From an uncultured Candidatus Saccharibacteria bacterium (GTDB lineage Bacteria > Patescibacteriota > Minisyncoccia > Phycocordibacterales > UBA9973), in assembly GCA_964565825.1 (NCBI GenBank), contig CAZMGK010000001.1, positions 2,052-66,051 of the forward strand: a DNA stretch of 64,000 nucleotides, given 5' to 3'. Each line of letters begins with the position of its first letter. Position 1 is the stretch's first letter. Below are positions 1 to 44,722 of the stretch, piece after piece. The translations under genes were made by a program, and so were the position numbers. Below the pieces are notes generated by a model. The model did no database searches and had not been told where the DNA came from. It worked only from the letters and a program-made list of their open reading frames with translations.

Positions 1-3000
1 GGTGGTGTCACTCGTAATATCATCAGTTGATGATGAACCACTGTCAGATCCTGCGTCCAGATTAGGCACACCCGGAGCTCCTGGTGCAGTTGTATCAACA
101 GTGACTGAGATACTCGGAGATGCGAGTGATTCATTTCCCGCGACATCGGTTGTGGTGATGGTGAGGGTATGTGCACCATCCGCGAGTGCTGATGAGGTAA
201 TACTGTAGAGGGCACCTGCACAGGTAAATGTTCCTACGTTCGTTGCTCCATCATAGAGTGTGATGAGTTCGCCTGTAGTACAAGAACCAGAGAGTGTTGG
301 TGTCGTATCCATAGTGATGTTGTCGGTCGTGATATTAGTATCAGATGCAGTATCCAAATCCGGTGCCGTTACTGGAGTACCAGGGAGTGTGGTGTCGATC
401 GTGACCGAAAGCGTGGTTCCGTCGGCACTCGCATTCCCAGCATTGTCTTCTTGATGAGCCAAGAAGACGTGGACACCATCGGCAAGCGCAGGAGATGCAG
501 TAAGTGTGACCGTACCTGCACTACAGTACCCTGTTGCATAGAGCGTGACACCCTCTTTGAGAACAACCAAATTGGTTCCCAAACACGATACCGTAAAGCT
601 CGGTGTTGTATCTTCAGTAATGTCATCAGTATTGGTTGTTCCTGTGTCTGATGCATTGGTCAGATCAGGCACACCAGGAGCTGATCCAGGAGCAGTGGTA
701 TCAATGGTGACAGAGAGTCCAGCTGATGTCGCTGAGACATTACCTGCGACATCGGTTTGACGTGCGGTCAGTGTGTACGCACCATCAGGCGTGAGTGCTG
801 TTGCGGTCAGTGTAATCGTTCCTCCACCTCCACAGACACCAGAGTCAAGCGTGATGGCACCGTTTCTGAGGTCAACGGTAGAACCAGCGACACAAGAAAT
901 CGTAAAGTCAGGGGTAGTGTCGGTGGTGATATTGTCGGTGGTTGATACTCCGGTACTGTCAGCAGTATCTGAACCTGCATCAAGATCAGGAGTAGAAGGT
1001 GCAGCATCTACTGTAGTGTCGATATCAATAACAACAAATCCAGAGAGTGGAGAGACATTTCCTGCTGGGTCTGTCTGTTTTGCAGTAATCGTGTATGTAC
1101 CATCTGGAGTGAGGGCTGTCGTAATAGTAATCGTTGAAGATGACCCAGCACAGACATCGGTGTAACCTGAAGCACTTCCATCTACCCAGAGTTCGACGGT
1201 AGATCCAGTCACACAAGAAATGGTGAAGGTTGGGGTGTCATCATTGGTTTCATTGTCGGTGGTGTTTCCTGTGTCAGAGGCGACATCAAGATCAGGAGTA
1301 CCTGGAGCAGCATCGGCTGTGGTATCGATGATGATGGCTTTGTTGGCGCCGAGGGATCCGGCAGCGCCTGGAGCTGCGAGTGTGAGTGTTGCATTGTTCG
1401 TCGCAACATCACGAATGGTTCCTCCGTTTAAGGCGAGAGAGTTTGTGGCGAAATAGTCGAGGTCACCACTTGCATCAGCTGCAACGACAGTGTAATTAAA
1501 GGTCAGTGTGTTTGTTCCAGTACCGGAACTGTAGGTTGCATCACGGTCAGTTACACCTGTTTCTAGAGTGAGGAGTGGAGAACCGGTGACGTTGACGACT
1601 TCAGAGAAGACGATTTGTATTGAAATGACCGCACCTGTGGTGTATTCCCCATTGGCAGTACTTGATGTCACACTCGTGACTGTTGGAGAGGTGGTGTCAA
1701 AGGTGTAGGTGTAGGTCGCTGAACTATCACTGTTACCTGATTGATCAGTTGCAGTGTACTCAAATGATCCAGATGAGCTGTTGTTGAACGTAACTGTACA
1801 GGTGAACTGTGTGTTACCGGTAGGAGTAAGTGCTGTACCTGAGGCGACACACGGTGATGTGTTGATGTTGCTTCCGGTGATGACAATATCGCCTGAAACC
1901 AATCCTGAGTTACTGTCGGTCACGGTGAAGACTGCCACGAGTGGGTCAGGACTATTGTAGGTACCGGTTGTTGGAGTGGGTACTCCAAGTGTTGGGTCGG
2001 TACTATCTATGTAAAAGTTTCCACTGTACTGAGTAGCACTGTTTCCAGCACGGTCGTCAACATCGACAGTCAGGGTTCCAGTAGCAGAGACGGTTCCACT
2101 ACAGAATATGGAGACTGATGCAGTGGGTAATGTTGCCACGGTTGGGAATGGATCATAACAGGTAAAGCTGTGAGTTGAGGTTCCTCCAAAGGTCACTGAG
2201 TCAATTCCATTGGCATCAGTGATAGTAAAGGTTGCATTGGTGATAGAGGCTGTTGAGAAGATGGTTGGAGTGGTTGGGGTAATGACTGGTACCACAGTTT
2301 CAATGATGTACGTTTGGGTGGCTTCTGCTCCAGGAATACTTCCTCCTGGGCCTCCACCATCTGGATCTCCTGAACCGTTGACGGTCAGTGTTCCACCAGG
2401 GGTAAGTATTCCATCATCGAGCGTACAGTCGGTGGTGGTTGGATTAGTTCCGACGGCAGGCACACAGGTAATAGCGGATGAGCCTCCTCCGTTGTAGACG
2501 GCTGTGACTGAGTCAATGTATCCAGGTGCGCCCATGAGGACATTGATCGTCGTGTCAGATATTGTTGTATTTGAAATGACCGTTGGTGCGGTGATGGTGA
2601 TGATTGGATAGAATTTGGCTGTCTGTTCACGGATGTTACCGGCTGTATCGTAGGCCCGGAGAATGACGGTATTGAGTGCAGAGGTTGATGCTCCAGTCAT
2701 CGCATACGGAGATGTTTGTGTCGCAAAGCCTCCACCGTTAACATTGAGTTCATAGTGATCAATCGCGATACCGTCGGTTGCTAAAAAGGTGATGGTTGGA
2801 TCAGTGAAATCAAGTGGTGTTGAAGTCAGAGGATCAATGGTGTAGACCGTGATGGTTGGAGCCAAACGGTCAATGATGTAGTTTGGAGAATTAAAGGTGA
2901 CTTGCTTCCCTACTTTGTCTGTTGTAGTGACAGAGATGACGTGGGTTTCTTCGGCATTGTTGGCAGTGGTGATATCGACTGTACAGGTAATAGTCGTATT

Positions 3001-6000
3001 GCCTGTGGTTGGGAGGACTGCTGGAGATGAACAATCAGGAGTCAGGACGCCGTCGATTGAGTCAGTGACTACTATGTATGTGTCAGCTTGGATACCTTGA
3101 CCGGTGGCATTGTCTGCAGTCGTGAAGGTAATAGTTTGAGGACTGGTAGTGGTTAGAAATGTTGCAGTGGTAAATGATCCTGTTGGGACTGTGTTGTCGA
3201 TGATAATAGTCAGTGCGCCACTATCTCCTGATTCATTTCCAGCGAGATCTACCTCACGGACCGTGAGGTTGTTGTGTGTCCCTTCAGACAGGGCTGATGT
3301 GGTACAAGACCAGGCACCAGCTCCGTCTGATGTTGTGGTACAGACAAGTGTTCCGTTATCGTAGACTTTGACTGTCTGTGTGGCACCGGCTCCCGTTCCA
3401 GAGAGTGTTGGTGTGGTGTCAGAAGTGAGATCATCAGTTGATGAGTATCCAGTGTCAGAACCTGCATCGAGGTTTGGGGTACCCGATGGAGCAGAAGGTG
3501 CTGTAGTATCGATGGTGACAGAAAGTGCACCGGATGCCACAGATACATTCCCGGCGACATCTGTTTGTTTCGCAGTGATACTGTAGGCAGCATCTGGAGT
3601 AAGTGCAGTTACGGTCAAGGTGACAGTACTTGCTGCACAGACACCGGTCACACCAGTAGCTACTCCACCGACGAAGAGTTCGACAGTAGATCCGGTGACA
3701 CACGAGAGATCAAAGGTTGGTGTACTATCATTGGTCACATCGTCGTTGGTGAATGTTCCATTGTCGGTTCCAGAGGTCATATCCGGTGCACCTGGAGCAG
3801 CGTCTGCTGTCGTGTCGATGATGATTGCTTTGTTGGCACCAAGAGATCCTGCAGCTCCAGGAGTTGGGAGAGTCAGGTCGGAGTCGATTGTTCCACCGTT
3901 TAAGGCCAGGGAACCTGTACCAGTGTAGTCGAGGTCGGAACTTGTCTCACCTGAGGCGACAGTGTATGTGAAGGTAAGTACTGTGGTACCAGTACCTGAA
4001 GTATAGTTGACGACTGCATCTGTTCCTCCTGTTTCCAGAGTCAGTTGTGGAGTACCGGTGACAGCGACTGGATTAGAGAAAGTAATTTGTATTGAAATGA
4101 CATCGCCTGCATTGTATGAGCCGTCGCCGGTTGATGAGGAGACGTCGGTGACGGTTGTATAGAGGAACCACCCAATAGCGGTACTACTCACGTCAATTGA
4201 GTTTGCTGGCAGAAGAGGAAGTGTGATACCAGAAGAACTATCAAGAGCAGTGTTGTCGGCGATAGAGAGATAATCTCCAGTGAAGGTTGATGCTCCAGTA
4301 AAGGTGATCGTCCGGACTGTCGGAGTATCAGCTGAGGTGATAGCAATGAGGTCATCGGCATCGAGACCATCAAGAACCAGTGAGTTAGCAATAGTGATAT
4401 TACCATTGTCAAAAACAAGTTGACTATTGGTACCATTGTTCGTTGATTCAACCTTAGAGAGTGTGTAGAAAGGAATGGTTGCTGTAGCATCGATGGTGAT
4501 TGCATTAGAGGTAATGGAGACCGTACCGTTGTTGTGTGTAAATGTACCTGCATTAGCAAATGTTGAACCAGAGACAGTGAGTGTCCCAGAGGTTGAAGTC
4601 ATTGCGCCTGAGGCACCAATTGAAAGTGATGGCGTAGACATACTCTGAGCCAATCCAGTGAATGCTCCATCGGTGACGGTCAGTGTATTTGCAACAACGA
4701 GACCACCTCCTAGTTGGAAGGTATCACTGTTACTAGCACTTGCATCATTGATGATGAGGTTGTAGTAGTCGGTGGCACCAAAGTCTTTGATGGTGTGAGT
4801 GGTGGCAGATCCGATTCCGTTACCGTAGTATTCCCAGGTTCCAGAGTTGACGTCGTTGGTGAGAGTGAGGGTGTTACTTCCTTGGAGGCGGACGGTACCG
4901 TCATTACTAAGTGTACCAGAGATAGTAGCATTAAAGCTTGAGAGATCAAGAGTTGAACCAGCATCTATGTCTACAATCGTACCGGTAATATTGAAGTCAT
5001 TGGTCACTACGGTCACCGTTGAATTATTTGTAATCGTAGGGCGGACAGTTCTTGCAACGGAACCAAAGTTCATGTCTTGGGCATCACCTCCGTTAAATGT
5101 TACGGTAAGTTCTGCAGTAAAAGTCATCGTTCCATCAATGATCGCATCTCCCCCAAAACTTGGAGAAAAATTCCCAAATGCTATCGTTCCTCCACTATTT
5201 ACTTGAAGATCTCCTGCATACGTCGATACTGCTCCAGGTGTGAAGGTAGCTCCAGTCATGACAATGAGTTCTTTTGTATCGTTGATGACCGTTGCACCAC
5301 CGGCATCTGGGTAAAGTGTGGTAAGGTCAGCATCTGCATTATTAGCTGTATTGAGTGTCGCAATAGTATGTGCACCACTTTCGAGGATCACTCTATCTTG
5401 GTAAATATCTGTAGTAATGTAGTTCGAAGAACCATTATGTCTAATGAGTGTTGCTCCATCTTCTGTTTCTCCGTCTATGTAGACAGTGACCACAGCAGAA
5501 GCAGTAGGGTTCACATATGACAGAGAGTATGCACCGGTACCACCTGAAGTGGTAGTACATGAGCTTGAGACTCCGTCAACGAGGAGACAGATGGATTTAC
5601 CGTTGGCGATTGGGGTGACTCCTTCGTCGGTGTAGACGCTTCCTGAGATGGTGGAGGCAGCAGCGTCGTAGATGGTGATGCGATGGTTACCAGATTGCGC
5701 AACAAAAAGACGACTGTTTGTAGAATCATACGCGAGATTTTTTGGAGTACTCATACGTGATTGGTTTGTAAGAGCACTAGTATTAGTGAAATTACTTTGC
5801 CCAAGGACATTGATAGCATTTTCTCCATCGGTGATAGTAGCCACATCGTACACAGTGACACGGTGGTTACCAGATTGGGCAACAAAAAGACGATTACCTG
5901 TTGAGTCATAGGCAAGACCTTGTGGACTGTTCATCCCAGCTTGAGTATCAGCCGAAGCAGAGTTTGTAAAATTAGTTTGACCAAGCACAAATGTTGCATT

Positions 6001-8055
6001 TTCTCCGTTAGTAATACCGGTGACATCATAGACTGTGACGCGATGATTGCCGTACTGCGAAACAAAGAGTCTGTTGCCTGTTGCGTCATAAGTAAGACCC
6101 TCTGGACCATTCATCCCAGATTGAGTGTTTCCGGCTCCAGTAGAAAAAAAACTTCCCTGACCAAGTACGAATGTTGCATTTTCTCCATCTGTAATAGCAG
6201 CAACGTCATATACTGTGACACGATGACTACCTGTTTGTCCGACAAAAAGACGATTACCTGTTGAGTCATAGGCAAGACCTGTTGGAGAATTCATTCCGCC
6301 TTGAGTATTAGCAGAGGCGGATGTCGTAAAGAGTGCTTGCCCAAGCACAAATGTTGCATTTTCTCCATCGGTGATAGTAGCCACATCGTACACAGTGACA
6401 CGGTGGTTACCAGATTGGGCAACAAAAAGACGATTACCTGTTGAGTCATAGGCAAGACCTTGTGGACTGTTCATCCCAGCTTGAGTATTTGCCGCTGTAT
6501 TAGACACAAAGTCAGTTTGCCCAAGAACATTATCAGGAACTCTATCAATGAGATTATCGCTCGCATCTAAGTTATACACAAATACTCGATGGTTAGCACT
6601 ATCTGAAACAAACAATCTATGATTAACACTATCTACTTCTTCGTCAACAGGAGTAGAAAAACCAAGTCTGTTCGCAGAATCATGTGACCCACTCTTTGTG
6701 TATGTTGGCACTGGCGCAGATAGATTTGTCCCATCGTACTGACCAAGTGCATCTACTGCATTTTCTCCGTCGGTGATAGTAGTCACATCATAGACAGTGA
6801 GACGACTATTACCATTACCTACTACAAAAAGACGACTATTACTGCTATCATAAGTTAGACCATATGGAGCATTCATCCCTGCTTGAGTGTTTGCCGCAGC
6901 AGTATTGGTGAAGTTACTTTGTCCAAGCACGAATGTTGCATTTTCTCCGTTAGTAATACCGGTGACATCATAGACTGTGACGCGATGATTGCCGTACTGC
7001 GAAACAAAGAGTCTGTTGCCTGTTGCGTCATAAGTAAGACCCTCTGGACCATTCATCCCAGATTGAGTGTTTCCGGCTCCAGTAGAAAAAAAACTTCCCT
7101 GACCAAGTACGAATGTTGCATTTTCTCCATCTGTAATAGCAGCAACGTCATATACTGTGACACGATGACTACCTGTTTGTCCGACAAAAAGACGATTACC
7201 TGTTGAGTCATAGGCAAGACCTGTTGGAGAATTCATTCCGCCTTGAGTATTAGCAGAGGCGGATGTCGTAAAGAGTGCTTGGCCGAGTACATTAATTGCT
7301 GGCTCTCCATCGGTAATTGCCGTGACATCATAGACGATGACGCGATTATTCAAAAAATCGGATACAAAGAGTCTATTATTTATAGAGTCATGCATAATAC
7401 CTCGTGGTGCGCTCATTCCTGATTGAGTGGTAGCAGATGCTGATGTCGTAAAGAGTGCTTGACCAAGGACGTTGATAGCCGGCTCTCCATCAGTGATAGC
7501 AGCGACATCGTAGACCGTGATACGATTGAGGTTTGCAACAAAAAGTCTATTACCTGTTGCGTCGTAAGCGAGACCATATGGAGCACTCATCCCTGCTTGA
7601 GTAACGGAACCACCATTGCTTATAAAGTCTGTTTGACCGAGCACGTTATCAGGAACTCTATCGATCAGGTTATTACTTCCATCTAAGTTATAGACGAGAA
7701 CACGGTTATTATTAACATCTGAAACAAACAATCGATGATTGACTGTATCCATAACTACTCCATACACCTGGTTGAATCCCAGTCTGTTCGGAGAGTCGTT
7801 TGACCCACTTTTTATTATATACCTTGGCACCGGCGCAGATAGATTTGTCCCATCGTACTGCCCCAACAGATCTATCGCATTCGCTCCATTGGAAATAGTT
7901 GCAAATGCAGGTGTTGGTAAAGCAAATGTAATGATGGTAAGTACAAGAATAAGATACGTTTTGTATGATTTCGTATGTGAAAAAATATTCTTTGTAAAAG
8001 ATAAAAAACTATCGACCAGTGTATTACCTTGTGTGTGTTTTGTGTATATAAACAT
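1..8055 (-). CDS. Giant secreted surface protein, partial (C-terminus lies beyond the window start). It has a Sec signal peptide, about 12 NHL-type beta-propeller repeats, then a long run of Ig-like domains (TDxAGNxS motif) and beta-helix-like repeat domains. More than 2680 aa lie in the window.
   Basis: My own reverse-complement translation from the ATG at 8053-8055 (preceded by an in-frame TAA) gives MFIYTKHTQGNTLVDSFLSFTKNIFSHTKSYKTYLILVLTIITFALPTPAFA, then repeated ...GNRLFV.Q.GNHRVTVYDV..ITDGE... (NHL) units. Translation near 3541-3660 gives VTALTPDAAYSITAKQTDVAGNVS in the same frame (low codon coordinate = 1 mod 3) as the start. None of the listed minus-strand ORFs occupies that frame, and all plus-strand ORFs in 1-8000 are short. 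The ORF track omits it because it runs off position 1. Confidence 0.8.
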   Translation of the reverse strand, partial: MFIYTKHTQGNTLVDSFLSFTKNIFSHTKSYKTYLILVLTIITFALPTPAFATISNGANAIDLLGQYDGTNLSAPVPRYIIKSGSNDSPNRLGFNQVYGVVMDTVNHRLFVSDVNNNRVLVYNLDGSNNLIDRVPDNVLGQTDFISNGGSVTQAGMSAPYGLAYDATGNRLFVANLNRITVYDVAAITDGEPAINVLGQALFTTSASATTQSGMSAPRGIMHDSINNRLFVSDFLNNRVIVYDVTAITDGEPAINVLGQALFTTSASANTQGGMNSPTGLAYDSTGNRLFVGQTGSHRVTVYDVAAITDGENATFVLGQGSFFSTGAGNTQSGMNGPEGLTYDATGNRLFVSQYGNHRVTVYDVTGITNGENATFVLGQSNFTNTAAANTQAGMNAPYGLTYDSSNSRLFVVGNGNSRLTVYDVTTITDGENAVDALGQYDGTNLSAPVPTYTKSGSHDSANRLGFSTPVDEEVDSVNHRLFVSDSANHRVFVYNLDASDNLIDRVPDNVLGQTDFVSNTAANTQAGMNSPQGLAYDSTGNRLFVAQSGNHRVTVYDVATITDGENATFVLGQALFTTSASANTQGGMNSPTGLAYDSTGNRLFVGQTGSHRVTVYDVAAITDGENATFVLGQGSFFSTGAGNTQSGMNGPEGLTYDATGNRLFVSQYGNHRVTVYDVTGITNGENATFVLGQTNFTNSASADTQAGMNSPQGLAYDSTGNRLFVAQSGNHRVTVYDVATITDGENAINVLGQSNFTNTSALTNQSRMSTPKNLAYDSTNSRLFVAQSGNHRITIYDAAASTISGSVYTDEGVTPIANGKSICLLVDGVSSSCTTTSGGTGAYSLSYVNPTASAVVTVYIDGETEDGATLIRHNGSSNYITTDIYQDRVILESGAHTIATLNTANNADADLTTLYPDAGGATVINDTKELIVMTGATFTPGAVSTYAGDLQVNSGGTIAFGNFSPSFGGDAIIDGTMTFTAELTVTFNGGDAQDMNFGSVARTVRPTITNNSTVTVVTNDFNITGTIVDIDAGSTLDLSSFNATISGTLSNDGTVRLQGSNTLTLTNDVNSGTWEYYGNGIGSATTHTIKDFGATDYYNLIINDASASNSDTFQLGGGLVVANTLTVTDGAFTGLAQSMSTPSLSIGASGAMTSTSGTLTVSGSTFANAGTFTHNNGTVSITSNAITIDATATIPFYTLSKVESTNNGTNSQLVFDNGNITIANSLVLDGLDADDLIAITSADTPTVRTITFTGASTFTGDYLSIADNTALDSSSGITLPLLPANSIDVSSTAIGWFLYTTVTDVSSSTGDGSYNAGDVISIQITFSNPVAVTGTPQLTLETGGTDAVVNYTSGTGTTVLTFTYTVASGETSSDLDYTGTGSLALNGGTIDSDLTLPTPGAAGSLGANKAIIIDTTADAAPGAPDMTSGTDNGTFTNDDVTNDSTPTFDLSCVTGSTVELFVGGVATGVTGVCAASTVTLTVTALTPDAAYSITAKQTDVAGNVSVASGALSVTIDTTAPSAPSGTPNLDAGSDTGYSSTDDLTSDTTPTLSGTGAGATQTVKVYDNGTLVCTTTSDGAGAWSCTTSALSEGTHNNLTVREVDLAGNESGDSGALTIIIDNTVPTGSFTTATFLTTTSPQTITFTTADNATGQGIQADTYIVVTDSIDGVLTPDCSSPAVLPTTGNTTITCTVDITTANNAEETHVISVTTTDKVGKQVTFNSPNYIIDRLAPTITVYTIDPLTSTPLDFTDPTITFLATDGIAIDHYELNVNGGGFATQTSPYAMTGASTSALNTVILRAYDTAGNIREQTAKFYPIITITAPTVISNTTISDTTINVLMGAPGYIDSVTAVYNGGGSSAITCVPAVGTNPTTTDCTLDDGILTPGGTLTVNGSGDPDGGGPGGSIPGAEATQTYIIETVVPVITPTTPTIFSTASITNATFTITDANGIDSVTFGGTSTHSFTCYDPFPTVATLPTASVSIFCSGTVSATGTLTVDVDDRAGNSATQYSGNFYIDSTDPTLGVPTPTTGTYNSPDPLVAVFTVTDSNSGLVSGDIVITGSNINTSPCVASGTALTPTGNTQFTCTVTFNNSSSGSFEYTATDQSGNSDSSATYTYTFDTTSPTVTSVTSSTANGEYTTGAVISIQIVFSEVVNVTGSPLLTLETGVTDRDATYSSGTGTNTLTFNYTVVAADASGDLDYFATNSLALNGGTIRDVATNNATLTLAAPGAAGSLGANKAIIIDTTADAAPGTPDLDVASDTGNTTDNETNDDTPTFTISCVTGSTVELWVDGSASGYTDVCAGSSSTITITTALTPDGTYTITAKQTDPAGNVSPLSGFVVIDIDTTVDAAPSTPDLDAGSDTADSTGVSTTDNITTDTTPDFTISCVAGSTVDLRNGAITLDSGVCGGGGTITLTATALTPDGAYTLTARQTDVAGNVSATSAGLSVTIDTTAPGSAPGVPDLTNASDTGTTNTDDITEDTTPSFTVSCLGTNLVVLKEGVTLYATGYCSAGTVTLTASPALADGVHVFLAHQEDNAGNASADGTTLSVTIDTTLPGTPVTAPDLDTASDTNITTDNITMDTTPTLSGSCTTGELITLYDGATNVGTFTCAGALYSITSSALADGAHTLTITTTDVAGNESLASPSISVTVDTTAPGAPGVPNLDAGSDSGSSSTDDITSDTT

Positions 8056-8107
8056 ACGTATATTTTATCATGGTACATGAGGTAAAATCTATTTCTGTCT
8101 AGTGTTT

Positions 8108-8138
8108 GCTGTGAAAAACTCAACGAGTTTTTCACAGC
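8108..8138. promoter_or_regulatory. Perfect inverted repeat GCTGTGAAAAACTC-aac-GAGTTTTTCACAGC, about 55-85 nt upstream of the giant-protein start; candidate operator or 5'-UTR hairpin.
   Basis: 14-nt perfect arms read from the sequence. No U-tract follows on either strand, so it is unlikely to be a terminator. Confidence 0.35.
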
Positions 8139-8705
8139 CTGTATGCTCTCTCACCTCCCTCTTGCAAAGAGGTCATTTTATCTACACTTTGGGCGTATGT
8201 AAAGCATGTAGATGTTTCTCATACCTAGACAGATAGAGGGTAAACACAGAATACACAGCTGTGTGTTACACGAATACTCATCTCCATAGGTACTCTACGG
8301 TGTATCTGTGTCCTCTGTAGCTTTGTTCTTGATATATGATATATATCAACGTATATATCATCTTGTACTTCATGATACGTCTCTTGATGAAGAGAAAAGT
8401 CAATCGAATTAAAAAATATAATCACACAACAAAAAAACACTCACTCATACATCAGAAAAATACTCTCTTGTTTCACATACCCCCTACTCTAAAAATCACC
8501 ATCATCACCGTCTCTTCACCTCTACAGCAAAAAACGCACGTTTCCACTTGTAGATTTTTTATACATCATATATACTCATACCATGTCAAATACAGATCGT
8601 GTACTTTCAGAACTTTTTGACCTCTTTTTCTGTCACTATGATGCACTGATACCGAGACTCAACGTTGAAAAAATTTTGTAAATGACTTCATGAAATAGAT
8701 TTTTA

Positions 8706-8930
8706 TTTCCAGAAACGACCTTCCAAAGCTAAGGTCCTTCCTGAAAAAAAATCGTTTAGATATTTTCCGTAAACGATTTCAGGGAGTTGAGGTCCTTCCT
8801 GATAAAAAATAAGTTGAACGACTTCCAAAAGCTGATGTTCTTCTCGAAAAAAAGACTTCAAAACATTCTCGGAAGCGACCTTCCAAAGCTAAGGTCCTTC
8901 CCGACTTAGGTGCTTCTCGAAAAATTCTAC
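8706..8930. repeat. Four degenerate tandem repeats of about 50-56 bp (consensus ...AACGACCTTCCAAAGCTAAGGTCCTTCCTGAAAAAAA...) in the 1-kb divergent intergenic region.
   Basis: CGACCTTCCAAAGCTAAGGTCCTTCC occurs at about 8717 and 8877. Diverged copies sit at about 8771 (GATTTCAGGGAGTTGAGGTCCTTCCTGATAAAAAA) and about 8822. Each unit ends in an A-run. Confidence 0.6.
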
Positions 8931-8979
8931 ATACATACACATTGTTTTTAAAAAAAGACCTGCTATACTTTATATATGG

Positions 8980-9038
8980 TTCCCGTTAGAAGTCAGCTAC
9001 TTCATATATCCACACAAGAAAAAAACAAACACGGGAAC
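8980..9038. other. Hairpin-prone element containing CCCGTTAGAAGTCAG, the reverse complement of CTGACTTCTAACGGG that recurs at 56865-56879 and within the leader modules. The stem GTTCCCG...CGGGAAC encloses about 45 nt.
   Basis: Direct string matches and complementarity read from the sequence. Confidence 0.4.
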
Positions 9039-9057
9039 TAAATAATATTTATAAGCA

Positions 9058-9100
9058 CTAATTAAGGACGGAAGTCTCAAGACTTCCTACTTCTAACGGG
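9058..9100 (+). promoter_or_regulatory. Conserved 43-nt leader module, CTAATTAAGGAC-GGAAGTC-tcaa-GACTTCC-TACTTCTAACGGG, ending exactly at the ATG.
   Basis: A near-identical module sits upstream of gatC (56763-56804, minus strand) and a diverged copy upstream of the 46297 gene. The hairpin stem shows compensatory changes: GGAAGTC/GACTTCC here versus GGAAATC/GATTTCC in the other two copies. Confidence 0.6.
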
Positions 9101-9892
9101 ATGGAAACAGAAAAAAATAATCAAGAAGTTCATCACACAAATGAACACTCACCTATTACAAGTAACGGAGAGAAAAATTCATTATCAGTAGGTTCTGCAA
9201 TTATTATTGGAGCAGTAATCATAGCGCTCGCAGTTGTCGGATCAAAGAAATTTTCTAGCTCAAGCATGCGTGATTCATCTGAATCAGTTCTTTCAACCCT
9301 CGATATTAGTGAGAAAAAATTCAAAGCTTGTTACGAAGCAAAAACACCTGAAGCAAAAATCCGCGCTCATATGGCAAGCGCAGAAAAAGCAACCAAACAT
9401 ATTCCAGAAGATCAAGGACGTGGTACACCATACAGTATTGCAATCAACCAGAAGACTGGTATGAAAATAGAAATTGCTGGAGCGTACCCGACTGAAGCAG
9501 TCACCAGTATCATAGATAGTATGTTTGCGGGTACAGCAAAAAGTCAGACTGAAATTGACATTGATCCAGTTACCGGCGAAGACCACTATTTTGGTTCAAA
9601 AGATGCAGAAATTGTAATCATAGAATACTCTGATTTGGAATGTCCATACTGTTCACGTTTTCACACAACGATGCAAGATGTAGTAGAGTCGTATGGTGGA
9701 AAAGTAGCATGGGTCTACAGACACCTCCCTCTTGAGCAACTTCACCCTAATGCATTTGATAAAGCAATCTCTTCGGAATGTATCTATGACATAGGAGGAG
9801 ATGTAAAATTCTGGGAATACATTGATTTACTCTTTAAAAAAAATGAGCCAAAGAAACCAGTGTTTGACCCGATAACAGGAGAGACGAAATAG
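9101..9892 (+). CDS. Membrane-anchored thioredoxin-fold thiol:disulfide oxidoreductase (DsbA/Thioredoxin_4-like) with a CPYC active site. It appears to lack the usual C-terminal half of DsbA-type proteins.
   Basis: N-terminal TM helix (IIIGAVIIALAVVG). Motif DLECPYCSRFH followed by VAWVYRHLPL...HPNA. The ORF stops at 9892 and a terminator hairpin follows at 9931. Confidence 0.6.
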   Translation: METEKNNQEVHHTNEHSPITSNGEKNSLSVGSAIIIGAVIIALAVVGSKKFSSSSMRDSSESVLSTLDISEKKFKACYEAKTPEAKIRAHMASAEKATKHIPEDQGRGTPYSIAINQKTGMKIEIAGAYPTEAVTSIIDSMFAGTAKSQTEIDIDPVTGEDHYFGSKDAEIVIIEYSDLECPYCSRFHTTMQDVVESYGGKVAWVYRHLPLEQLHPNAFDKAISSECIYDIGGDVKFWEYIDLLFKKNEPKKPVFDPITGETK

Positions 9893-9995: not shown

Positions 9996-11444
9996 TTAAT
10001 CAAAATAATGTTTAAGCCTTGCAATTTTTTCATTTGCACGAAGTTTTTCATGCACCTTTGCCTCAATCTGACGAATACGCTCACGTGTGACATTGAATTC
10101 AACACCAACCTCTTCGAGAGTATGCTGTACACCATCAACGAGTCCGTATCTCATTTCTAAAATCTTTCTTTCTTTTTCTGAGAGCTCTTGTAATGCTTCA
10201 TTGATCTGATCTTTCAACATGCGATGAGAACTTTCTTGATCGGGACGAAGGATTTTGTCATCTGCAATAAATTCTCCACGAGTAGACTTTTCGTCGTCGT
10301 CACCAATTGGCTGTTCAAGAGAGAGTGTATCTTGATTGATATTTTCAATTATATGAATCTTCTCAACCTCAACACCCATTTCTGTTGCAATTTCTTCTGG
10401 TAATGGATCACGTCCCAAATCTTGAGACAGGCGTCTGTACACTTGCTTATATTTTGAAATAGTTTCCACCATGTGTACTGGAATACGAATGGTCCGAGAC
10501 TGGTCAGCAAGAGCGCGAGTTATTGATTGACGAATCCACCATGTAGCGTAGGTACTAAATTTATACCCCTTAGTCCAATCAAATTTCTCAACGGCTTTAA
10601 AGAGTCCGATGTTCCCTTCTTGTATTAAATCAAGAAGTGTCAGATCAGCACTTCGTCCAACATATTTTTTTGCAATAGAAACAACGAGACGGAGGTTCGC
10701 GCGAGCCAAGAGTGTTCGAGCCTCTGTATCTCCAGCCTCGATCCGTTTTGCCAAATCACGTTCTTCGCTTGCATGAATAAGTGCATACTGTCCAATTTCT
10801 TTTAGATACATTTGAATAGAATCATATGACGAGGCGTCTTTACCAAGTTTGAAATCTTTCTTCTTTTCCTCTGGGTCCATATCAAGCAAATTTCCACCTT
10901 CCAAGATATCAATCCCGGCAAGCTGTAATTTACTATATAATTCTTCCAAAAAGACTAGATTATTTTCAATATTTGGAAATGACTTGAGTATCTCATCGTA
11001 GGTAATAAAATGACGTTTCTTACCTTTTTCAACAAGTGCATCCATGATGTCTACTTGGTCTTCTATTTTCTTGCTGTGTTTTGTGTTTAAAACAATTTTT
11101 TTCTCAGGAGCTAGATTTTTCTTGGCTGGTATTTTTTTAGTAGGTTTTTTAGCAACCACAGAACTAGCTTTTTTCGCCACACCTGTAACTCGAGATTTTT
11201 TGACAGGAGTCGGTTTCTTTTTTAGAGGGGTCGTTTTCATAGCTGCTTTTTTTACCACAGCCGAAGCCTTGTTCGAGGTTTTGTATTGAGATTTTTTGAC
11301 AGGAGTCGGTTTCTTTTTTAGAGGGGTCGTTTTCATAACTGCTTTTTTTGCAACAGCGGAAGCGACTCTTTTAATCACAGCCTTTGGTTGGGACTTTTTG
11401 ACAGGAGTCGGTTTCTTTTTTGTTTGTGTAATATTTTTTTTCAT
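9996..11444 (-). CDS. rpoD: RNA polymerase sigma-70 factor RpoD, with a lysine-rich tandemly repeated N-terminal extension.
   Basis: Sigma70 region 2 ([40 protein letters not shown]) and region 4 are present. The N-terminus repeats ...[17 protein letters not shown]...; the DNA shows about 96-bp repeats at roughly 11196/11291/11395. Confidence 0.92.
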
Positions 11445-16801: not shown

Positions 16802-19800
16802 TTATTCGTTATTTGCTACAGGAGCCTCATCAAAATCGACTTCATTTTGATTAATAAGATTTATATCAAGAGCTAGACCACGAAGGTAATTGAGCATAAC
16901 AGAAAATGACGCTGGAGTATTTGGTGCTCGTAATTCTTCTCCTTTGATAATAGAATCGAAGGCAGCAGTACGTCCCATAATATCATCTGACTTGATGGTG
17001 AGCATTTCTCGAAGTATGTGCGCTGCACCGTATCCTTCAAGAGCCCACACTTCCATTTCTCCGAAACGCTGTCCTCCGCCTTGAGCTTTACCTCCGAGTG
17101 GTTGTTGGGTAATAAGAGAGTACGGACCGATACTACGCATGTGAATCTTGTCTTGTACCATGTGGTGAAGTTTCAACACGTGCATAATACCAACTGCGAT
17201 ATCTTGGTCAAATTTGTCTCCGGTTCGTCCGTCGTACAGTGCGATACGTCCATTTTCAGGAATACCTGCTTTTTTTAATTCTTCACGAATTTCGTCTTCA
17301 CCTGCTCCGCAAAATGCTGGAACGATGGCTTGATATCCAAGCGTATGAGCAGCGAGACCCAAGTGCATTTCAAGAATCTGCCCCAAGTTCATACGTGATG
17401 GCACACCGAGTGGTGTCAAAATAATATCAACTGGTTTTCCATCTACGGTATATGGCATATCTTCTTCTGGGAGAATCGTTGAGATGACACCTTTGTTTCC
17501 GTGACGTCCAGCAAGTTTATCTCCCACTGAAATGTTTCGAAGCTGTGCAACTTCAATAACGATTTTTTTGATAATTCCACTTTCAAGAGAATGACCTTGT
17601 TCACGTGAAAAAACTTTGACATTAATAACGCGTCCTTTCTTTCCGTGTTCAACACGAAGTGACGTGTCTTTTACATCACGTGCTTTTTCAGCAAAAATAG
17701 AGCGAAGGAGCTTTTCTTCTGGAGTGAGTTCTGTTTCTCCTTTTGGTGTAATTTTTCCAACCAAGATATCGTTCTCTCGAACTTCAGCACCAACGCGGAT
17801 GATACCGTCTTCATCGAGATCCTTGAGTTTTCCTTCTCCGATGTTTGGAATATCACGAGTTGTTAATTCGGGACCGAGTTTTGTATCACGAACGAGACAA
17901 ATAAACTCTTCGATATACATTGATGAGAACTTACTATTTTTTACAAGGCGTTCAGATAAAATAATCGCATCTTCAAAGTTTGCACCATTCCATGGCATAA
18001 ATGCAACGAGAACGTTTTGTCCAAGCGCGATTTGTCCTTCTTGAGAAGAAGAGGTGTCTCCGATTACTTGTCCTTTGGTTACTTTTTCACCGACAGAAAC
18101 CATTGGTCGTTGGTGAAAAGAAGTGAAGTTGTTTGTTCTTTCAAAGTTAACCAGTGTTTGTGTGTATTTTTTACCTTTTTCATCTTCGACAGTAATATGT
18201 TTTGAATCTACTTCAGTCACCGTACCATTTACAGGAGAAAGAGGAAGGCGTCCAGAATCTTTTGCTGCCATCGCTTCCATACCAGTTGCCACAAGAGGAA
18301 CGTCTGGAATAATACAAGGTGTTGCTTGTTTTTGCATGTTTGATCCCATGAGTGCACGGTTTGCATCATCATGTTCCAAAAATGGAATCATCGAAGTCGC
18401 AATAGAAAATGCTTGGTTTGGAGCAACGTCAATAAAATCTACTTTATCTCTTCCGATCAAACCTGGTTCAGTGAAAATACGTGCTTCGACTTGTTCTACG
18501 AGAATATTTCCTTTACTGTCGTACGGCGTCAATGCGTGTGCAATACTGTATTGCTCTTCCTCGAGTGCGTTAAGATAGACAATCTCTCCAGTCACGCGAC
18601 CTTTTACTACTTTTGAATAGGGTGTTTCAATGATTCCGTATTCATTCACTTTTGCATAAGAAGACATGTGCAAGATAAGACCGATGTTTGGTCCTTCTGG
18701 TGTATGGATAGGACACACACGTCCATAGTGAGATGTGTGCACGTCACGAACTTCAAGTCCTGCGCGCTCACGTGTAAGTCCACCGGGACCAAGCGCTGAA
18801 AGCGTACGGAGGTTTTCAATTTCTGCCAAGATATTTTCTTGGTTCATAAATTGAGAGAGTTGGTTTGTGGTGAAAAATTCTTTCACACGAGCCTGGAGAG
18901 GACGCTGGTTAATCACGTTTATTGGCATTGTTGTCATGGTATCCATTGTAGACATACGGTCTTGCACATTTCGTTTGATCTGTGTCATACCAACACGCAT
19001 TTTTTGCTGAAGGAGTTCTCCGACAAAACGCACACGTCGTTGCCCGAGGTGGTCGATATCATCTGCTTTCATATCTGGGTGAGTATTTAAATCGTAGATA
19101 TGATTTATCACGGTTACAATATCTTCGATAGAGAGCGTACGTCGGTCAAGATCTTTTTTATCAAGTGATTGAGCAAAACGCTGATTGAAACGGAAACGAC
19201 CAATAGGTGAAAGATCGTATCGTTCAGTCGATAAAATTGCAGTAATAAAATCACGAGCATTGGCAGCGGTAGCAAGATCGCCATCTCTTAATCTTTTGTA
19301 AATCTCAATAGCGCTTTCATTGACGTCTTTTGCTGTTTCTTTTTCAATTGCGGTTTTTATCTGAGGCAAGTAAGGACTGTTTTTAAATGCTTTTTCAATA
19401 GCTTCATTGGTTGCAAGACCCATTACTCGAAGGAGCGCAATTATAGAAAATTTTCTTTTTTTATCAATACGTACATAGACGATATTATCTGCATCTGTTT
19501 CAAGTTCTATCCAGACACCACGTGCTGGGATAATTTTTGCACCAAAATATTTTTTACCTTTTATGTCTTCTTCAGTAAAGAAGATACCAAAACTACGCGC
19601 GAGCTGTGGCACCATGACACGCTCGACACCATTGATAATAAATGTTCCGTGCGCAGTCATCAATGGCAAGTCAACAAGAAAAATTTCTTGTTCTTTGGTT
19701 TCATTGATTATTTTATTTACTAATTTGATACGTGCTTTTAATTGACCATCGTATGTTAATTTATTTGCTTTCGCAAATCGTTCATCATGCTTTGGTTCAC

Positions 19801-40582: not shown

Positions 40583-41413
40583 TTAAAAATCAAAATATAA
40601 TACCGATTTTACAGTCGCCGTGTATTCTGGAGTACATCCTTGGAAACACACGCTAGACTCAACTTCAACTGCATACCGATACGGCACATCCGTCACATCC
40701 GTGAATGATAGAAATCGAAAATATTCTGATGGTGCTGTTGTTCCTGAATAGAGCGAAGCGTCAAACGCAATCAAACCGTTCTCATTATACAACATTGGGT
40801 CCGTAGCATACGCAGCATATCCGATGGTTCCAGAACCAGAAAAAGGGTTGAAATAATAATCGCACTGATTCCCTGATCCGCACGCTGTATCAATAAGAGC
40901 CAGAAAATCACTTGCACTATCACCGTCGGCGACTGCTTCTTTTTGAACAAATTTTACAAACTCAACTCCCTCTTCGGCGAGATACTGGGCTGTTAACTTT
41001 CTTTTAGTCAGATGAATATCTTGCATAGAGCTCGTACTGACCTGTGACAAGGCGGTAAACGCAATCAAGAAAATAAACAATGCAACGAGTGTTTCGATGA
41101 GGGTAAACCCCGACACCAATTTCAGGTGATTGTTCGCACAAGTAGGTGTATATTTATTCTGAGAAAAATTAAGAAAACCAAAAACGTGTTTCTTACTAAT
41201 TGGTGTGGGGGTAAACCCCGACACCAATTTCAGGTGATTGTTCGCACAAGTAGGTGTATATTTATTCTGAGAAAAATTAAGAAAACCAAAAACGTGTTTC
41301 TTACTAATTGGTGTGGGGGTAAACCCGCCTACAAATCTCACTTTATTTTTAGTTTCCACGTGCATGTTACTTTTTTGTATATTTTTTTGTAGAAAACGAA
41401 TAAATGTATTCAT
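40583..41413 (-). CDS. Type IV pilin whose 5' end carries tandem 108-bp (36-aa) modules, each recreating the prepilin cleavage site (…LKLVSG|FTPTPISKKHVFGFLNFSQNKYTPTCANNH…) before the authentic VSG|FTLIETLVALF.
   Basis: Prepilin motif SGFTLIETLVALFIFLIAF. The upstream in-frame repeats come from the DNA repeats at 41096-41330. The true translation start is uncertain. Confidence 0.75.
   Translation of the reverse strand: MNTFIRFLQKNIQKSNMHVETKNKVRFVGGFTPTPISKKHVFGFLNFSQNKYTPTCANNHLKLVSGFTPTPISKKHVFGFLNFSQNKYTPTCANNHLKLVSGFTLIETLVALFIFLIAFTALSQVSTSSMQDIHLTKRKLTAQYLAEEGVEFVKFVQKEAVADGDSASDFLALIDTACGSGNQCDYYFNPFSGSGTIGYAAYATDPMLYNENGLIAFDASLYSGTTAPSEYFRFLSFTDVTDVPYRYAVEVESSVCFQGCTPEYTATVKSVLYFDF
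41096..41330 (-). repeat. 2.1 tandem copies of a 108-bp unit, each beginning with the palindrome GGTGTGGGGG-taaa-CCCCGACACC.
   Basis: GGGTAAACCCCGACACCAAT occurs at 41101 and 41209, with a partial copy at 41317. The units are identical. Confidence 0.85.
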
Positions 41414-43751: not shown

Positions 43752-44432
43752 TTAAGGATTACATTCTGTTTCTTGTTGTTGCAGATGATACGTTGTGCTT
43801 TGCCCAGAAAAACCAGTCGAATCGATACAAAAAGCAATATTAAAGTCTGTTTTTAATGGAGAAGAAACACCCCAGAGCGTTCCCGTAGGATGATTGTCAT
43901 GGCACACGGATAAAAGTCGATACCCAGCTGTTTCATAATCTGTTGAATACCATGGAAATGGATTATTGGAAAGTCTCGCTGCTTCTGCCAAAAAAGCTTC
44001 AACTTCAACACTATCGCACATATAGCTGTAGCTATTATTTTCTTGGTAATAAATATATGATTGTTTTTTAATTCCATCAAGAGCGGCTTTGATGGCTGCG
44101 TCACGTGCCCTATCTCGAGCATTCGTTAAACGAGGAATAATAATACCTGCAAGAATACCAATAATTGCAATCACAATGAGGAGCTCGATGAGGGTAAACC
44201 CCGACACCAATCGCAACAGACGCTGACGCCCTTTTTTGGTATGATGAGTCATCAGACGAGTAAGAAAACCGAATGGGTTATTTTTTAGGATTGGTGTGGG
44301 GGTAAACCCCGACATCAATCGCAACAGACGCTGACGCCCTTTTTTGGTATGATGAGTCATCAGACGAGTAAGAAAACCGAATGGGTTATTTTTTAGGATT
44401 GGTGTGGGGGTAAACCCCGACACCAATTTCAT
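43752..44432 (-). CDS. Type IV pilin with tandem 36-aa N-terminal modules (MKLVSG|FTPTPILKNNPFGFLTRLMTHHTKKGRQRLLRL x2) before the authentic VSG|FTLIELLIVIAIIG. The ORF track extends it to 44639; the ATG at 44432 (MKLVSG) is the more likely start.
   Basis: Prepilin motif SGFTLIELLIVIAIIGILAG. The modules are homologous to those of 40583..41413 and have the same 108-bp period. Confidence 0.75.
   Translation of the reverse strand: MKLVSGFTPTPILKNNPFGFLTRLMTHHTKKGRQRLLRLMSGFTPTPILKNNPFGFLTRLMTHHTKKGRQRLLRLVSGFTLIELLIVIAIIGILAGIIIPRLTNARDRARDAAIKAALDGIKKQSYIYYQENNSYSYMCDSVEVEAFLAEAARLSNNPFPWYSTDYETAGYRLLSVCHDNHPTGTLWGVSSPLKTDFNIAFCIDSTGFSGQSTTYHLQQQETECNP
44187..44432 (-). repeat. Three copies, at a 108-bp period, of GGGTAAACCCCGACACCAAT... 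carrying the GGTGTGGGGG-taaa-CCCCGACACC palindrome.
   Basis: Copies begin at 44192, 44300 and 44408. Units are near-identical (one has ACATC for ACACC). Confidence 0.85.
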
Positions 44433-44576
44433 ATACTTTTTTTTAAGGAGAGCACTTTTTTGTTTCAAAAAATGTTTTTTTGTACTAAAAACTTTTTGTT
44501 TTTTCTTTTTTAATCTTTTAACAATACTTCTATCTTTGTTAAAAATTTTGGTGTTTGAATTTGTATGTGGGGTTTT

Positions 44577-44611
44577 TGTTGGGGGAGGCCTACGGCCTCC
44601 GCCAACAAACA
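44577..44611. promoter_or_regulatory. Imperfect 16-nt-arm palindrome TTTGTTGGGGGAGGCC-tac-GGCCTCCGCCAACAAA in the divergent pilin/RNase II-R region; candidate operator.
   Basis: Single C/G mismatch in the G/C run, the same kind of mismatch as in the GGTGTGGGGG/CCCCGACACC palindrome. Confidence 0.35.
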
Positions 44612-44722
44612 CCCCCAAAAACACTACCGAAAAACACATACCAAGAGCACCCTCTTTATGCTACACTATAGTCGTGATTAAACCTCAAAAAACAGAAGCC
44701 GAAATACTCGAACGTCGAGAAT

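Follow-up and report, generated by a model that had tools for sequence, protein, structure and literature searches.

Positions 1-8055 of the window, i.e., the whole 64,000-nucleotide stretch analysed here (contig CAZMGK010000001.1, positions 2,052 to 66,051), are taken up by one giant open reading frame (ORF) on the minus strand. We think it probable that this frame encodes the first 2685 residues of a Sec-exported, fibrillar-adhesin-like surface protein, and that the long identical tracts inside it were produced by intragenic gene conversion. By "fibrillar adhesin" we mean a protein on the cell surface that holds out a binding domain on a stalk made of tandem domains (Monzon et al. 2021, PMC8286594). 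The visible protein has a stalk of this kind (at least 13 domains in aa 1296-2685), and its tandem NHL propellers are a candidate ligand-binding domain.

In the arrangement we propose, the head would consist of two six-bladed NHL propellers directly after the signal peptide and would be the probable ligand-binding part. The stalk would be formed by a beta-sandwich, a pertactin/Hap-like beta-helix and the Ig-like domains (six of them Big_13/SiiE-like), which together would give reach and stiffness. A C-terminal anchor would sit on the cell, placing the propellers at the distal tip, where they would face a host cell or surface. The unseen C-terminus is probably what holds the protein on the cell: shorter NHL + Ig-like homologs end in a transmembrane (TM) helix, so a C-terminal anchor with distal propellers is the most economical picture. 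Conversion would have made the two-blade tract shared by blades A4-A5 and B3-B4 as well as a shorter one shared by B2 and B5, and these tracts would be a single snapshot of continuing concerted blade evolution that remodels the head.

Several points weigh against this reading. The beta-helix model is of medium confidence, with a mean predicted local distance difference test (pLDDT) score of 66, and NHL is not a recognised or curated adhesive domain family. An uncleaved signal sequence could act as an N-terminal anchor, which would make the propellers membrane-proximal and reverse the orientation. The 100% identity of the tracts could come from an assembler or polishing consensus of near-identical copies. 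Finally, the C-terminal end of the protein is beyond the window and may carry an effector domain.

The giant reading frame and its domains

An earlier note on this stretch had proposed an ORF of more than 8 kb that was missing from the program-made ORF list, and six-frame translation of bases 1-8300 bears this out, except that the strand had to be corrected to minus. The minus strand holds a stop-free stretch of 2688 codons, its first start codon is the ATG at 8055, and the full translation stays open from that ATG to base 1. Open stretches in the other frames do not exceed 165 codons. The list lacks the giant ORF because the frame runs off the end of the window; since it is still open at base 1, the protein must be longer than 2685 aa, with its C-terminus beyond the window.

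The profile searches suggested in the same note were run against the 2685-aa protein, and both families proved significant: NHL (PF01436) at E 6.1e-39 (130.6 bits against a cut-off of 20) and Big_13 (PF19077) at E 8.6e-86, in six stretches of tandem copies. The rest of its architecture also held up (Table 1), i.e., a signal peptide (by inspection), about 12 NHL blades in two propellers (by Pfam, motif scan and AlphaFold), Ig-like domains and beta-helix-like repeats.

Read by inspection, the N-terminal segment is a putative Sec-type signal. Its hydrophobic part (aa 34-51) is the sole hydrophobic segment within the 2685 aa, and the N-terminus of the ortholog P0001 (see below) has a matching signal-peptide layout.

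The blade motif scan found 12 blades with a 60-aa period, arranged 6+6, and each six-blade set begins with a distinctive first blade. An AlphaFold model of aa 55-805, for which 11 sequences were used, reached a pLDDT of 82 and shows 12 four-stranded blades, with a low-confidence or disordered linker between the propellers (aa 441-461); closure of the propeller rings was judged from blade and strand counts rather than from coordinates. Foldseek searches with this model gave tandem-propeller proteins as top matches, and 2ymu was among the matches. By phmmer, the solved proteins nearest to the propellers are the NHL propellers of SOQ1 (6.5e-16), NHLRC2 and TRIM71.

A secreted enzyme of the lactonase/arylesterase type would account for the scores that the protein as a whole obtains against Pfam Arylesterase (E 5e-26) and SdiA-regulated, as well as for the source names "lactonase" or "YncE" on some homologs. 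We dismissed these two Pfam matches, however, because they have 0 individually significant stretches and are sums of weak blade similarity, and the NCBIfam matches are all far under their cut-offs. The blades are moreover interchangeable and homogenised, with no unique catalytic blade, and we regard an enzyme as very improbable.

On the fibrillar-adhesin-like reading, the propellers would be followed by the stalk, which opens with a small beta-sandwich and a right-handed parallel beta-helix. Sequence searches of Pfam, NCBIfam and PDB returned nothing significant in aa 796-1425 or 1621-2250, save for an OmpL47-type domain (aa 1754-1813) just over its NCBIfam cut-off; the domain at aa 1296-1424 likewise had no significant family or PDB match. 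A word-index homolog search of the middle region was insensitive (13 matches, with P0001 missed), and an exhaustive profile search was used instead. The profile of aa 796-1310 (4126-5670) matched 7325 cluster representatives, 1591 of them at E <=1e-30, often with 10-40 matches per protein and in proteins of 2000-7700 aa. This beta-sandwich plus beta-helix module has no Pfam or NCBIfam model, and its matches show it to be a widespread, if uncurated, component of giant proteins.

The remainder (aa 1296-2685) comprises at least 13 Ig-like or beta-sandwich domains, of which six are Big_13, with a seventh Big_13 beginning at the window edge. The Big_13 units resemble the BIg domains of SiiE (PDB 2yn3, E 6e-12). 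The 22 cysteines make up 11 pairs with a spacing of 10-21 residues. The pairs occur singly in the beta-sandwich/Ig-like domains and are lacking from the propellers and the beta-helix, and a single disulfide probably locks each Ig-like domain. Threonine makes up 17% of the protein, and acidic residues outnumber basic ones (D+E 9.3% versus K+R 2.5%). The cysteine pairing, the acidic Thr-rich composition, the lone N-terminal hydrophobic segment and the membrane-anchored DsbA-like thioredoxin encoded by the divergent neighbour fit an extracellular protein, from which we infer export.

Table 1. Features of the giant gene and its surroundings, with positions in the window
Feature	Positions	Strand	Basis and remarks
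Giant ORF	1-8055	-	ATG 8053-8055; 2685 codons, open to window base 1; six-frame translation, Pfam
Putative signal peptide region, aa 1-54	7894-8055	-	Basic n-region, hydrophobic aa 34-51, AFA|T; by inspection
NHL propeller A, blades A1-A6, aa 55-435	6751-7893	-	Pfam, motif scan, AlphaFold, Foldseek, phmmer
NHL propeller B, blades B1-B6, aa 436-800	5656-6750	-	Pfam, motif scan, AlphaFold, Foldseek, phmmer
Small beta-sandwich, aa ~801-920	5296-5655	-	"ISGSVYTDEG.." motif, Cys pair 823/833; low-confidence model
Right-handed parallel beta-helix, aa ~921-1295	4171-5295	-	Predicted fold; no Pfam match
Unassigned Ig-like-type domain, aa 1296-1424	3784-4170	-	Beta-rich, weak Big_8/Big_12 hints; repeated at aa 2125-2250
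Big_13 Ig-like domains 1-2, aa 1425-1620	3196-3783	-	Pfam; Cys pair in each
About five unassigned beta-sandwich domains, aa 1621-2124	1684-3195	-	Four with Cys pair
Second copy of unassigned domain type, aa 2125-2250	1306-1683	-	Internal repeat of aa 1296-1424
Big_13 domains 3-6 and start of the seventh, aa 2251-2685	1-1305	-	Truncated by window edge
Exact repeat R1, propeller A copy (blades A4-A5)	6932-7281	-	Identical to 5990-6339
Exact repeat R1, propeller B copy (blades B3-B4)	5990-6339	-	Identical to 6932-7281
Exact repeat R2, copy in blade B2	6356-6488	-	Identical to 5816-5948
Exact repeat R2, copy in blade B5	5816-5948	-	Identical to 6356-6488
Non-coding spacer, 1045 bp	8056-9100	.	Between giant gene and divergent DsbA-like gene
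Membrane-anchored DsbA/thioredoxin-like gene	9101-9892	+	Divergent neighbour; conserved boundary of variable locus

Identical tracts and concerted evolution of the blades

The propeller region contains two maximal exact repeats: R1, 350 bp with 0 mismatches between copies at an offset of 942 bp, and R2, 133 bp, also exact, at an offset of 540 bp. The identical stretches given in the earlier note are therefore real, although their coordinates were off by 25-75 bp. In the protein, blades A4-A5 are identical to B3-B4, and B5 largely matches B2.

The two propellers are also related by an older duplication, which has an offset of ~1122 bp and a DNA identity of 69-78%. The offset of R1 equals 1122 - 180, i.e., R1 is shifted by one blade (180 bp) relative to this propeller duplication. 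Immediately outside R1, identity drops from 30/30 to 17-25/30 per 30-bp window (57-83%), and blade pairs beyond the tracts have a DNA identity of at most ~78%. At 78% identity, the chance of 350 identical bases is ~0.78^350, or ~1e-38. Blade-pair identity in the window gene is local: three pairs reach 89-100% and the others 22-84%, and at third codon positions the converted pairs are 91-100% identical versus 24-62% for other pairs.

R1 and R2 are most likely the products of recent intragenic gene conversion. The earlier note had suggested recent intragenic duplication or gene conversion; conversion is the reasonable half of that suggestion, whereas a leftover of tandem duplication is contradicted by R1 lying out of register. 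Because the blades share a 180-bp period, conversion copies keep the reading frame and the 6+6 count. The template/variable repeat pair of a diversity-generating retroelement (DGR) was considered and rejected: the tracts have zero mismatches, both are coding, and no reverse transcriptase was found among the window ORFs scanned.

Only one full-length ortholog was found, P0001 on contig L001 (a Joint Genome Institute metagenome, assembled independently), which is 65% identical. Among 5.8 billion clusters, the architecture of the window protein (12 NHL blades + beta-helix + Big_13) occurs in P0001 and in the fragments P0028 and P0131. L001 carries at least 25 exact repeats of 38-113 bp at mixed offsets, and the blade identity of the ortholog is global (76-89%), in contrast to that of the window gene. 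Third-position identity between orthologous blades of the window gene and L001 is 35-56%, i.e., essentially saturated, whereas inside L001 it is 51-96% for interior blades that are paralogous (mostly 70-96%, with B3 as a low outlier) and 96% for the two first blades. Paralogous blades are thus more alike than orthologous ones, and therefore DNA-level homogenisation has occurred independently in each lineage, which is concerted evolution. Comparable repeats are found more widely: exact internal repeats of at least 30 aa are present in 26 of 120 homologs from many sources, two of them exceeding 100 aa (137 and 188 aa), and that of the window protein is 124 aa.

The apparent end of P0001 (L001 ~18030-18061) results from the loss of 1 nt from a C run (CCAGGGAACCAGACC); after it, Big_13 repeats go on in another frame to the end of the contig, which breaks inside the repeats. 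Judging from the sequence, the 2686-aa length of P0001 is an artefact or a pseudogenising frameshift.

Nucleotide-identical blades are known from highly repetitive propellers, where amplification is the usual explanation and a caveat about assembly has been noted (Pereira & Lupas 2022, PMC9218822). Applied to the window gene, fresh amplification would mean that blades arose by recent duplication of one or two of them ("continuous amplification from single blades"). The many propeller lineages whose blades are near-identical, down to their nucleotides (PMC9218822), are in keeping with this, as are the interior blades of L001, which are mostly 81-92% identical in DNA. However, the identical copies in the window gene are non-tandem, 942 and 540 bp apart with diverged blades in between, and the tract edges do not match the whole-propeller unit. 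The 6+6 arrangement is also unchanged, as in the ortholog and more than 100 homologs, and duplication would have needed exactly compensating deletions to leave it so. We consider fresh amplification improbable.

An assembly artefact (e.g., collapse, polishing or mis-threading) would mean that the real blades are diverged or differ in number or order. The window comes from a 132.5-kb contig of a metagenome-assembled genome (MAG), 350-bp exact repeats are longer than short-read k-mers, and nucleotide-identical blades make assemblies uncertain (Pereira & Lupas, PMC9218822). The contig break and the 1-nt frameshift in L001 show that errors do occur in such genes. On the other hand, the frame, the 180-bp period and the 6+6 architecture are intact in the window. 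The repeats at 5816-7281 are interleaved in the order R2a-u1-R1a-u2-R2b-u3-R1b, and the sole alternative path through them swaps u1 and u3 and gives 9+3 blades; since the ortholog and over 100 homologs are 6+6, the order as assembled makes sense. An independent assembly is homogenised with non-identical copies, which cannot be collapsed ones, and the exact repeats in homologs of many sources also argue against an error peculiar to this contig. We therefore rate an artefact as unlikely, if far from negligible, and keep gene conversion as the explanation of the tracts.

Homologs, host and the variable locus

The best-matching homologs are from Peribacteria, Altimarinota, Andersenbacteria and Parcubacteria, and BapA-family proteins (P0113/P0114) are among the homolog matches. 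Homologs P0024, P0074, P0075, P0090 and P0097 have a matching N-terminal 12-blade module and end in a C-terminal TM helix with a basic tail. A different layout is seen in P0002-P0023 (~1900 aa; P0016 is named Candidatus Peribacteria), most of which have the 12-blade NHL module from residue ~700-800 on, and which share a conserved C-terminal motif, ...GGGD-x-FHFFGF or FYFFGF. This motif could be an unrecognised sorting or anchoring signal. The C-termini of other homologs consist of a TM helix and a KRK tail. Contig L002 encodes an unrelated Bacteroidia Ig-repeat protein.

By its RpoC, the host can be placed as a Paceibacteria-like Candidate Phyla Radiation (CPR) bacterium: RpoC is 72-73% identical to proteins named Paceibacteria, Nomurabacteria and Patescibacteria, and up to 86% identical to those of further MAGs. 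The earlier note had assigned the gene to the surface toolkit of episymbiotic bacteria; a CPR host agrees with this, while an adhesin function and an episymbiotic lifestyle are what we infer. The rest of the window is housekeeping (rpoB, rpoC, dnaG, rpoD, secDF, mur ligases, ftsW, ligA, smc and a type IV pilin cluster).

In five related genomes the order rpoB-rpoC-dnaG-rpoD is conserved, with the divergent DsbA-like gene coming next, and nucleotide homology to the relatives ends at 9101-9282. What lies beyond the DsbA-like gene differs. In L003 (17631-18932), L004 (11368-12573) and L005 (17617-18888) it is a family 2 glycosyltransferase (GT2) followed by EF-Ts and S2; in L006/L007 (L006 17655-23621) it is a 2537-aa giant with SpvB, FG-GAP and RHS domains, and in L008/L009 (L008 17605-23615) a 2284-aa giant with the same domains. 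The RHS giants of L006 and L008 have no sequence similarity to the window protein, and an exchange of cassettes behind a shared N-terminus was therefore rejected. From these comparisons, the site beside the DsbA-like gene is variable and tends to hold large secreted proteins.

These giants also bear on another reading, in which the window protein is a scaffold that delivers a polymorphic toxin or contact-dependent effector, with a toxin or enzyme at its unseen C-terminus. They occupy the same chromosomal position, the 12-blade NHL module is joined to RHS cores in seven homologs (P0052, P0053, P0067, P0078, P0083, P0086 and P0112), and the beta-helix resembles the passengers of secreted adhesins and toxins. 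However, no toxin, RHS or enzyme domain is present in the 2685 visible residues or in the ortholog, the giants are dissimilar in sequence as described above, and shorter NHL + Big_13 homologs have a simple C-terminal TM anchor. An effector scaffold is thus unlikely, and we prefer a surface protein anchored at its C-terminus.

The gene had looked GC-richer than its surroundings by eye, and it is: 43-50% versus 36-42% elsewhere in the window. A foreign gene or genomic island acquired recently could look like this, and the gene is indeed absent at the locus in three relatives, while the ortholog sits in a different neighbourhood with an integrase ~9 kb away. Comparison with neighbouring genes, however, puts the excess at codon position 2, where GC is 0.53 versus 0.355 +/- 0.041 (+4 standard deviations, SD). 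At position 3 (GC3) it is 0.373 versus 0.325 +/- 0.039 (within ~1.2 SD), and the NHL part, at 0.309, has the genome value. The GC excess therefore reflects a Thr/Gly/Ala/Ser/Pro-rich composition and is no sign of recent import, so we rejected a foreign origin on GC grounds. The ortholog has a similar GC pattern, with GC3 that tracks its own host, and scans of the window turned up no mobility gene, tRNA or direct-repeat boundary. Recent acquisition has little probability in our view.

The spacer between the giant gene and the DsbA-like gene has no ORF of note and no Rfam match; the whole 64-kb window has zero tRNA genes and zero Rfam families at the gathering threshold. A perfect 14-3-14 palindrome (8108-8138) lies ~55 nt upstream of the giant ATG, and four degenerate 40-nt direct repeats occupy 8705-8904. 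The spacer has no similarity to the ~1.1-kb upstream region of the ortholog, and promoter-like sites are no commoner in it than in shuffles. These three results (Rfam, ortholog and shuffles) gave no sign of a regulatory RNA or conserved leader.

Some other repeats and elements were observed at or near the locus. L005 (GCA_964665975.1) has a DGR pair (bAvd and an RVT_1 reverse transcriptase) at 5089-6510, between trmD and rpoB, which is absent at the corresponding place in the window. The window's rpoD (9996-11444) contains an exact 96-bp tandem repeat (11192-11337) in its N-terminal non-conserved part, and its RpoD sigma factor has 482 aa versus 420-455 aa in relatives. Two type IV pilin genes on the minus strand (40583-41413 and 43752-44639) each have ahead of them an exact tandem duplication of 108 bp (41101-41326 and 44208-44422), whose unit opens with a G+C hairpin, GGTGTCGGGGTTTACCCCCACACC (3 occurrences in the window versus 0 expected). 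This unit overlaps the prepilin cleavage motif: copies read "..LVSGFTPTPI..", and the last reads "..LVSGFTLIE..", where the pilin truly starts. Tandem duplication thus appears to have taken in the 5' end of the pilin gene together with the region upstream of it.

A bolder idea, which we hold to be quite unlikely, is that the blade array is a built-in variation device, in which recombination would reshuffle the loops of the binding face and thereby change or broaden the ligand recognised by an episymbiont. If true, blade shuffling would be combinatorial variation by within-gene conversion, analogous to pilin or VlsE cassettes. In that case, the position next to rpoBC-dnaG-rpoD-dsbA would serve as a dedicated site for exchanging host-interaction giants (holding an NHL adhesin, an SpvB/RHS toxin, or nothing).

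Comparison with known systems

The window protein resembles known fibrillar adhesins (SiiE, BapA/LapF) in being long, very acidic and Thr-rich and in having a tandem Ig-like stalk. SiiE and BapA, however, are type-1-secreted proteins of diderm bacteria that lack an N-terminal Sec signal, whereas the window protein has a Sec-type signal, an NHL head, a beta-helix and a CPR host. Judging from its visible part, we therefore do not class it with the adhesins of type 1 secretion systems (T1SS; SiiE/BapA/LapF/RTX): the Sec-type signal is present, and no T1SS genes occur within 56 kb on the one visible side of the giant gene.

The beta-helix is similar in fold to Hap, pertactin, Vag8, UpaB, EtpA, HMW1 and tapirins, with a sequence identity of just 9-16%. 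Compared with the passengers of autotransporters and two-partner secretion (TPS) systems, the helix of the window protein is an internal module, and no beta-barrel translocator or TPS domain was seen. Type V secretion was therefore rejected, as the propellers follow the signal peptide directly and the likeness is of the beta-helix fold only. The host, as a CPR bacterium, probably lacks an outer membrane.

NHL propellers with six four-stranded blades, as in the window protein, are found in SOQ1, NHLRC2 and TRIM71/Brat/Thin. The sensor domain of PknD is also a six-bladed NHL propeller. These known examples are single, intracellular or lumenal, and bind RNA, proteins or unknown ligands, whereas those of the window protein are in tandem, belong to a giant that we take to be extracellular, and are homogenised by recombination.

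Highly repetitive propellers (PMC9218822, PDB 2ymu) share with the window family their near-identical blades and independent homogenisation in related proteins. In the published model (PMC9218822), whole propellers are amplified from one blade; the window gene instead has a mosaic two-blade tract, a one-blade shift and an unchanged 6+6 arrangement. This blade pattern fits conversion better than tandem amplification.

Among small-genome CPR bacteria, there is a parallel with cysteine-rich extracellular proteins of Peribacteria (PMC4736985), which are likewise large, bear signal peptides and paired cysteines, and have a disulfide-bond protein nearby. Giant genes have also been described from predatory and episymbiotic bacteria (bioRxiv 10.1101/2023.11.21.568195), but the window gene (>2685 aa) is far under the "giant" scale of that study.

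CPR/Patescibacteria rely on other cells, which makes their large surface proteins prime candidates for host recognition, and almost none have been characterised. The gene described here offers a delimited architecture (propeller head, beta-helix and an Ig-like stalk that is probably disulfide-locked) together with DNA-level evidence of concerted evolution in a putative binding head. It also marks a place in the chromosome at which related genomes exchange giant secreted proteins that are unrelated to one another. A specialist will find nothing unexpected in it, and its value is that of a worked example and of a warning to those who annotate or assemble genes of this kind. Every component is already known, i.e., NHL propellers, a Big_13/SiiE-like stalk, an adhesin-type beta-helix, repetitive blades and Cys-paired CPR proteins. 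The exact domain combination is rare, and a two-blade conversion tract that lies out of register makes a neat observation, as does the variable locus.

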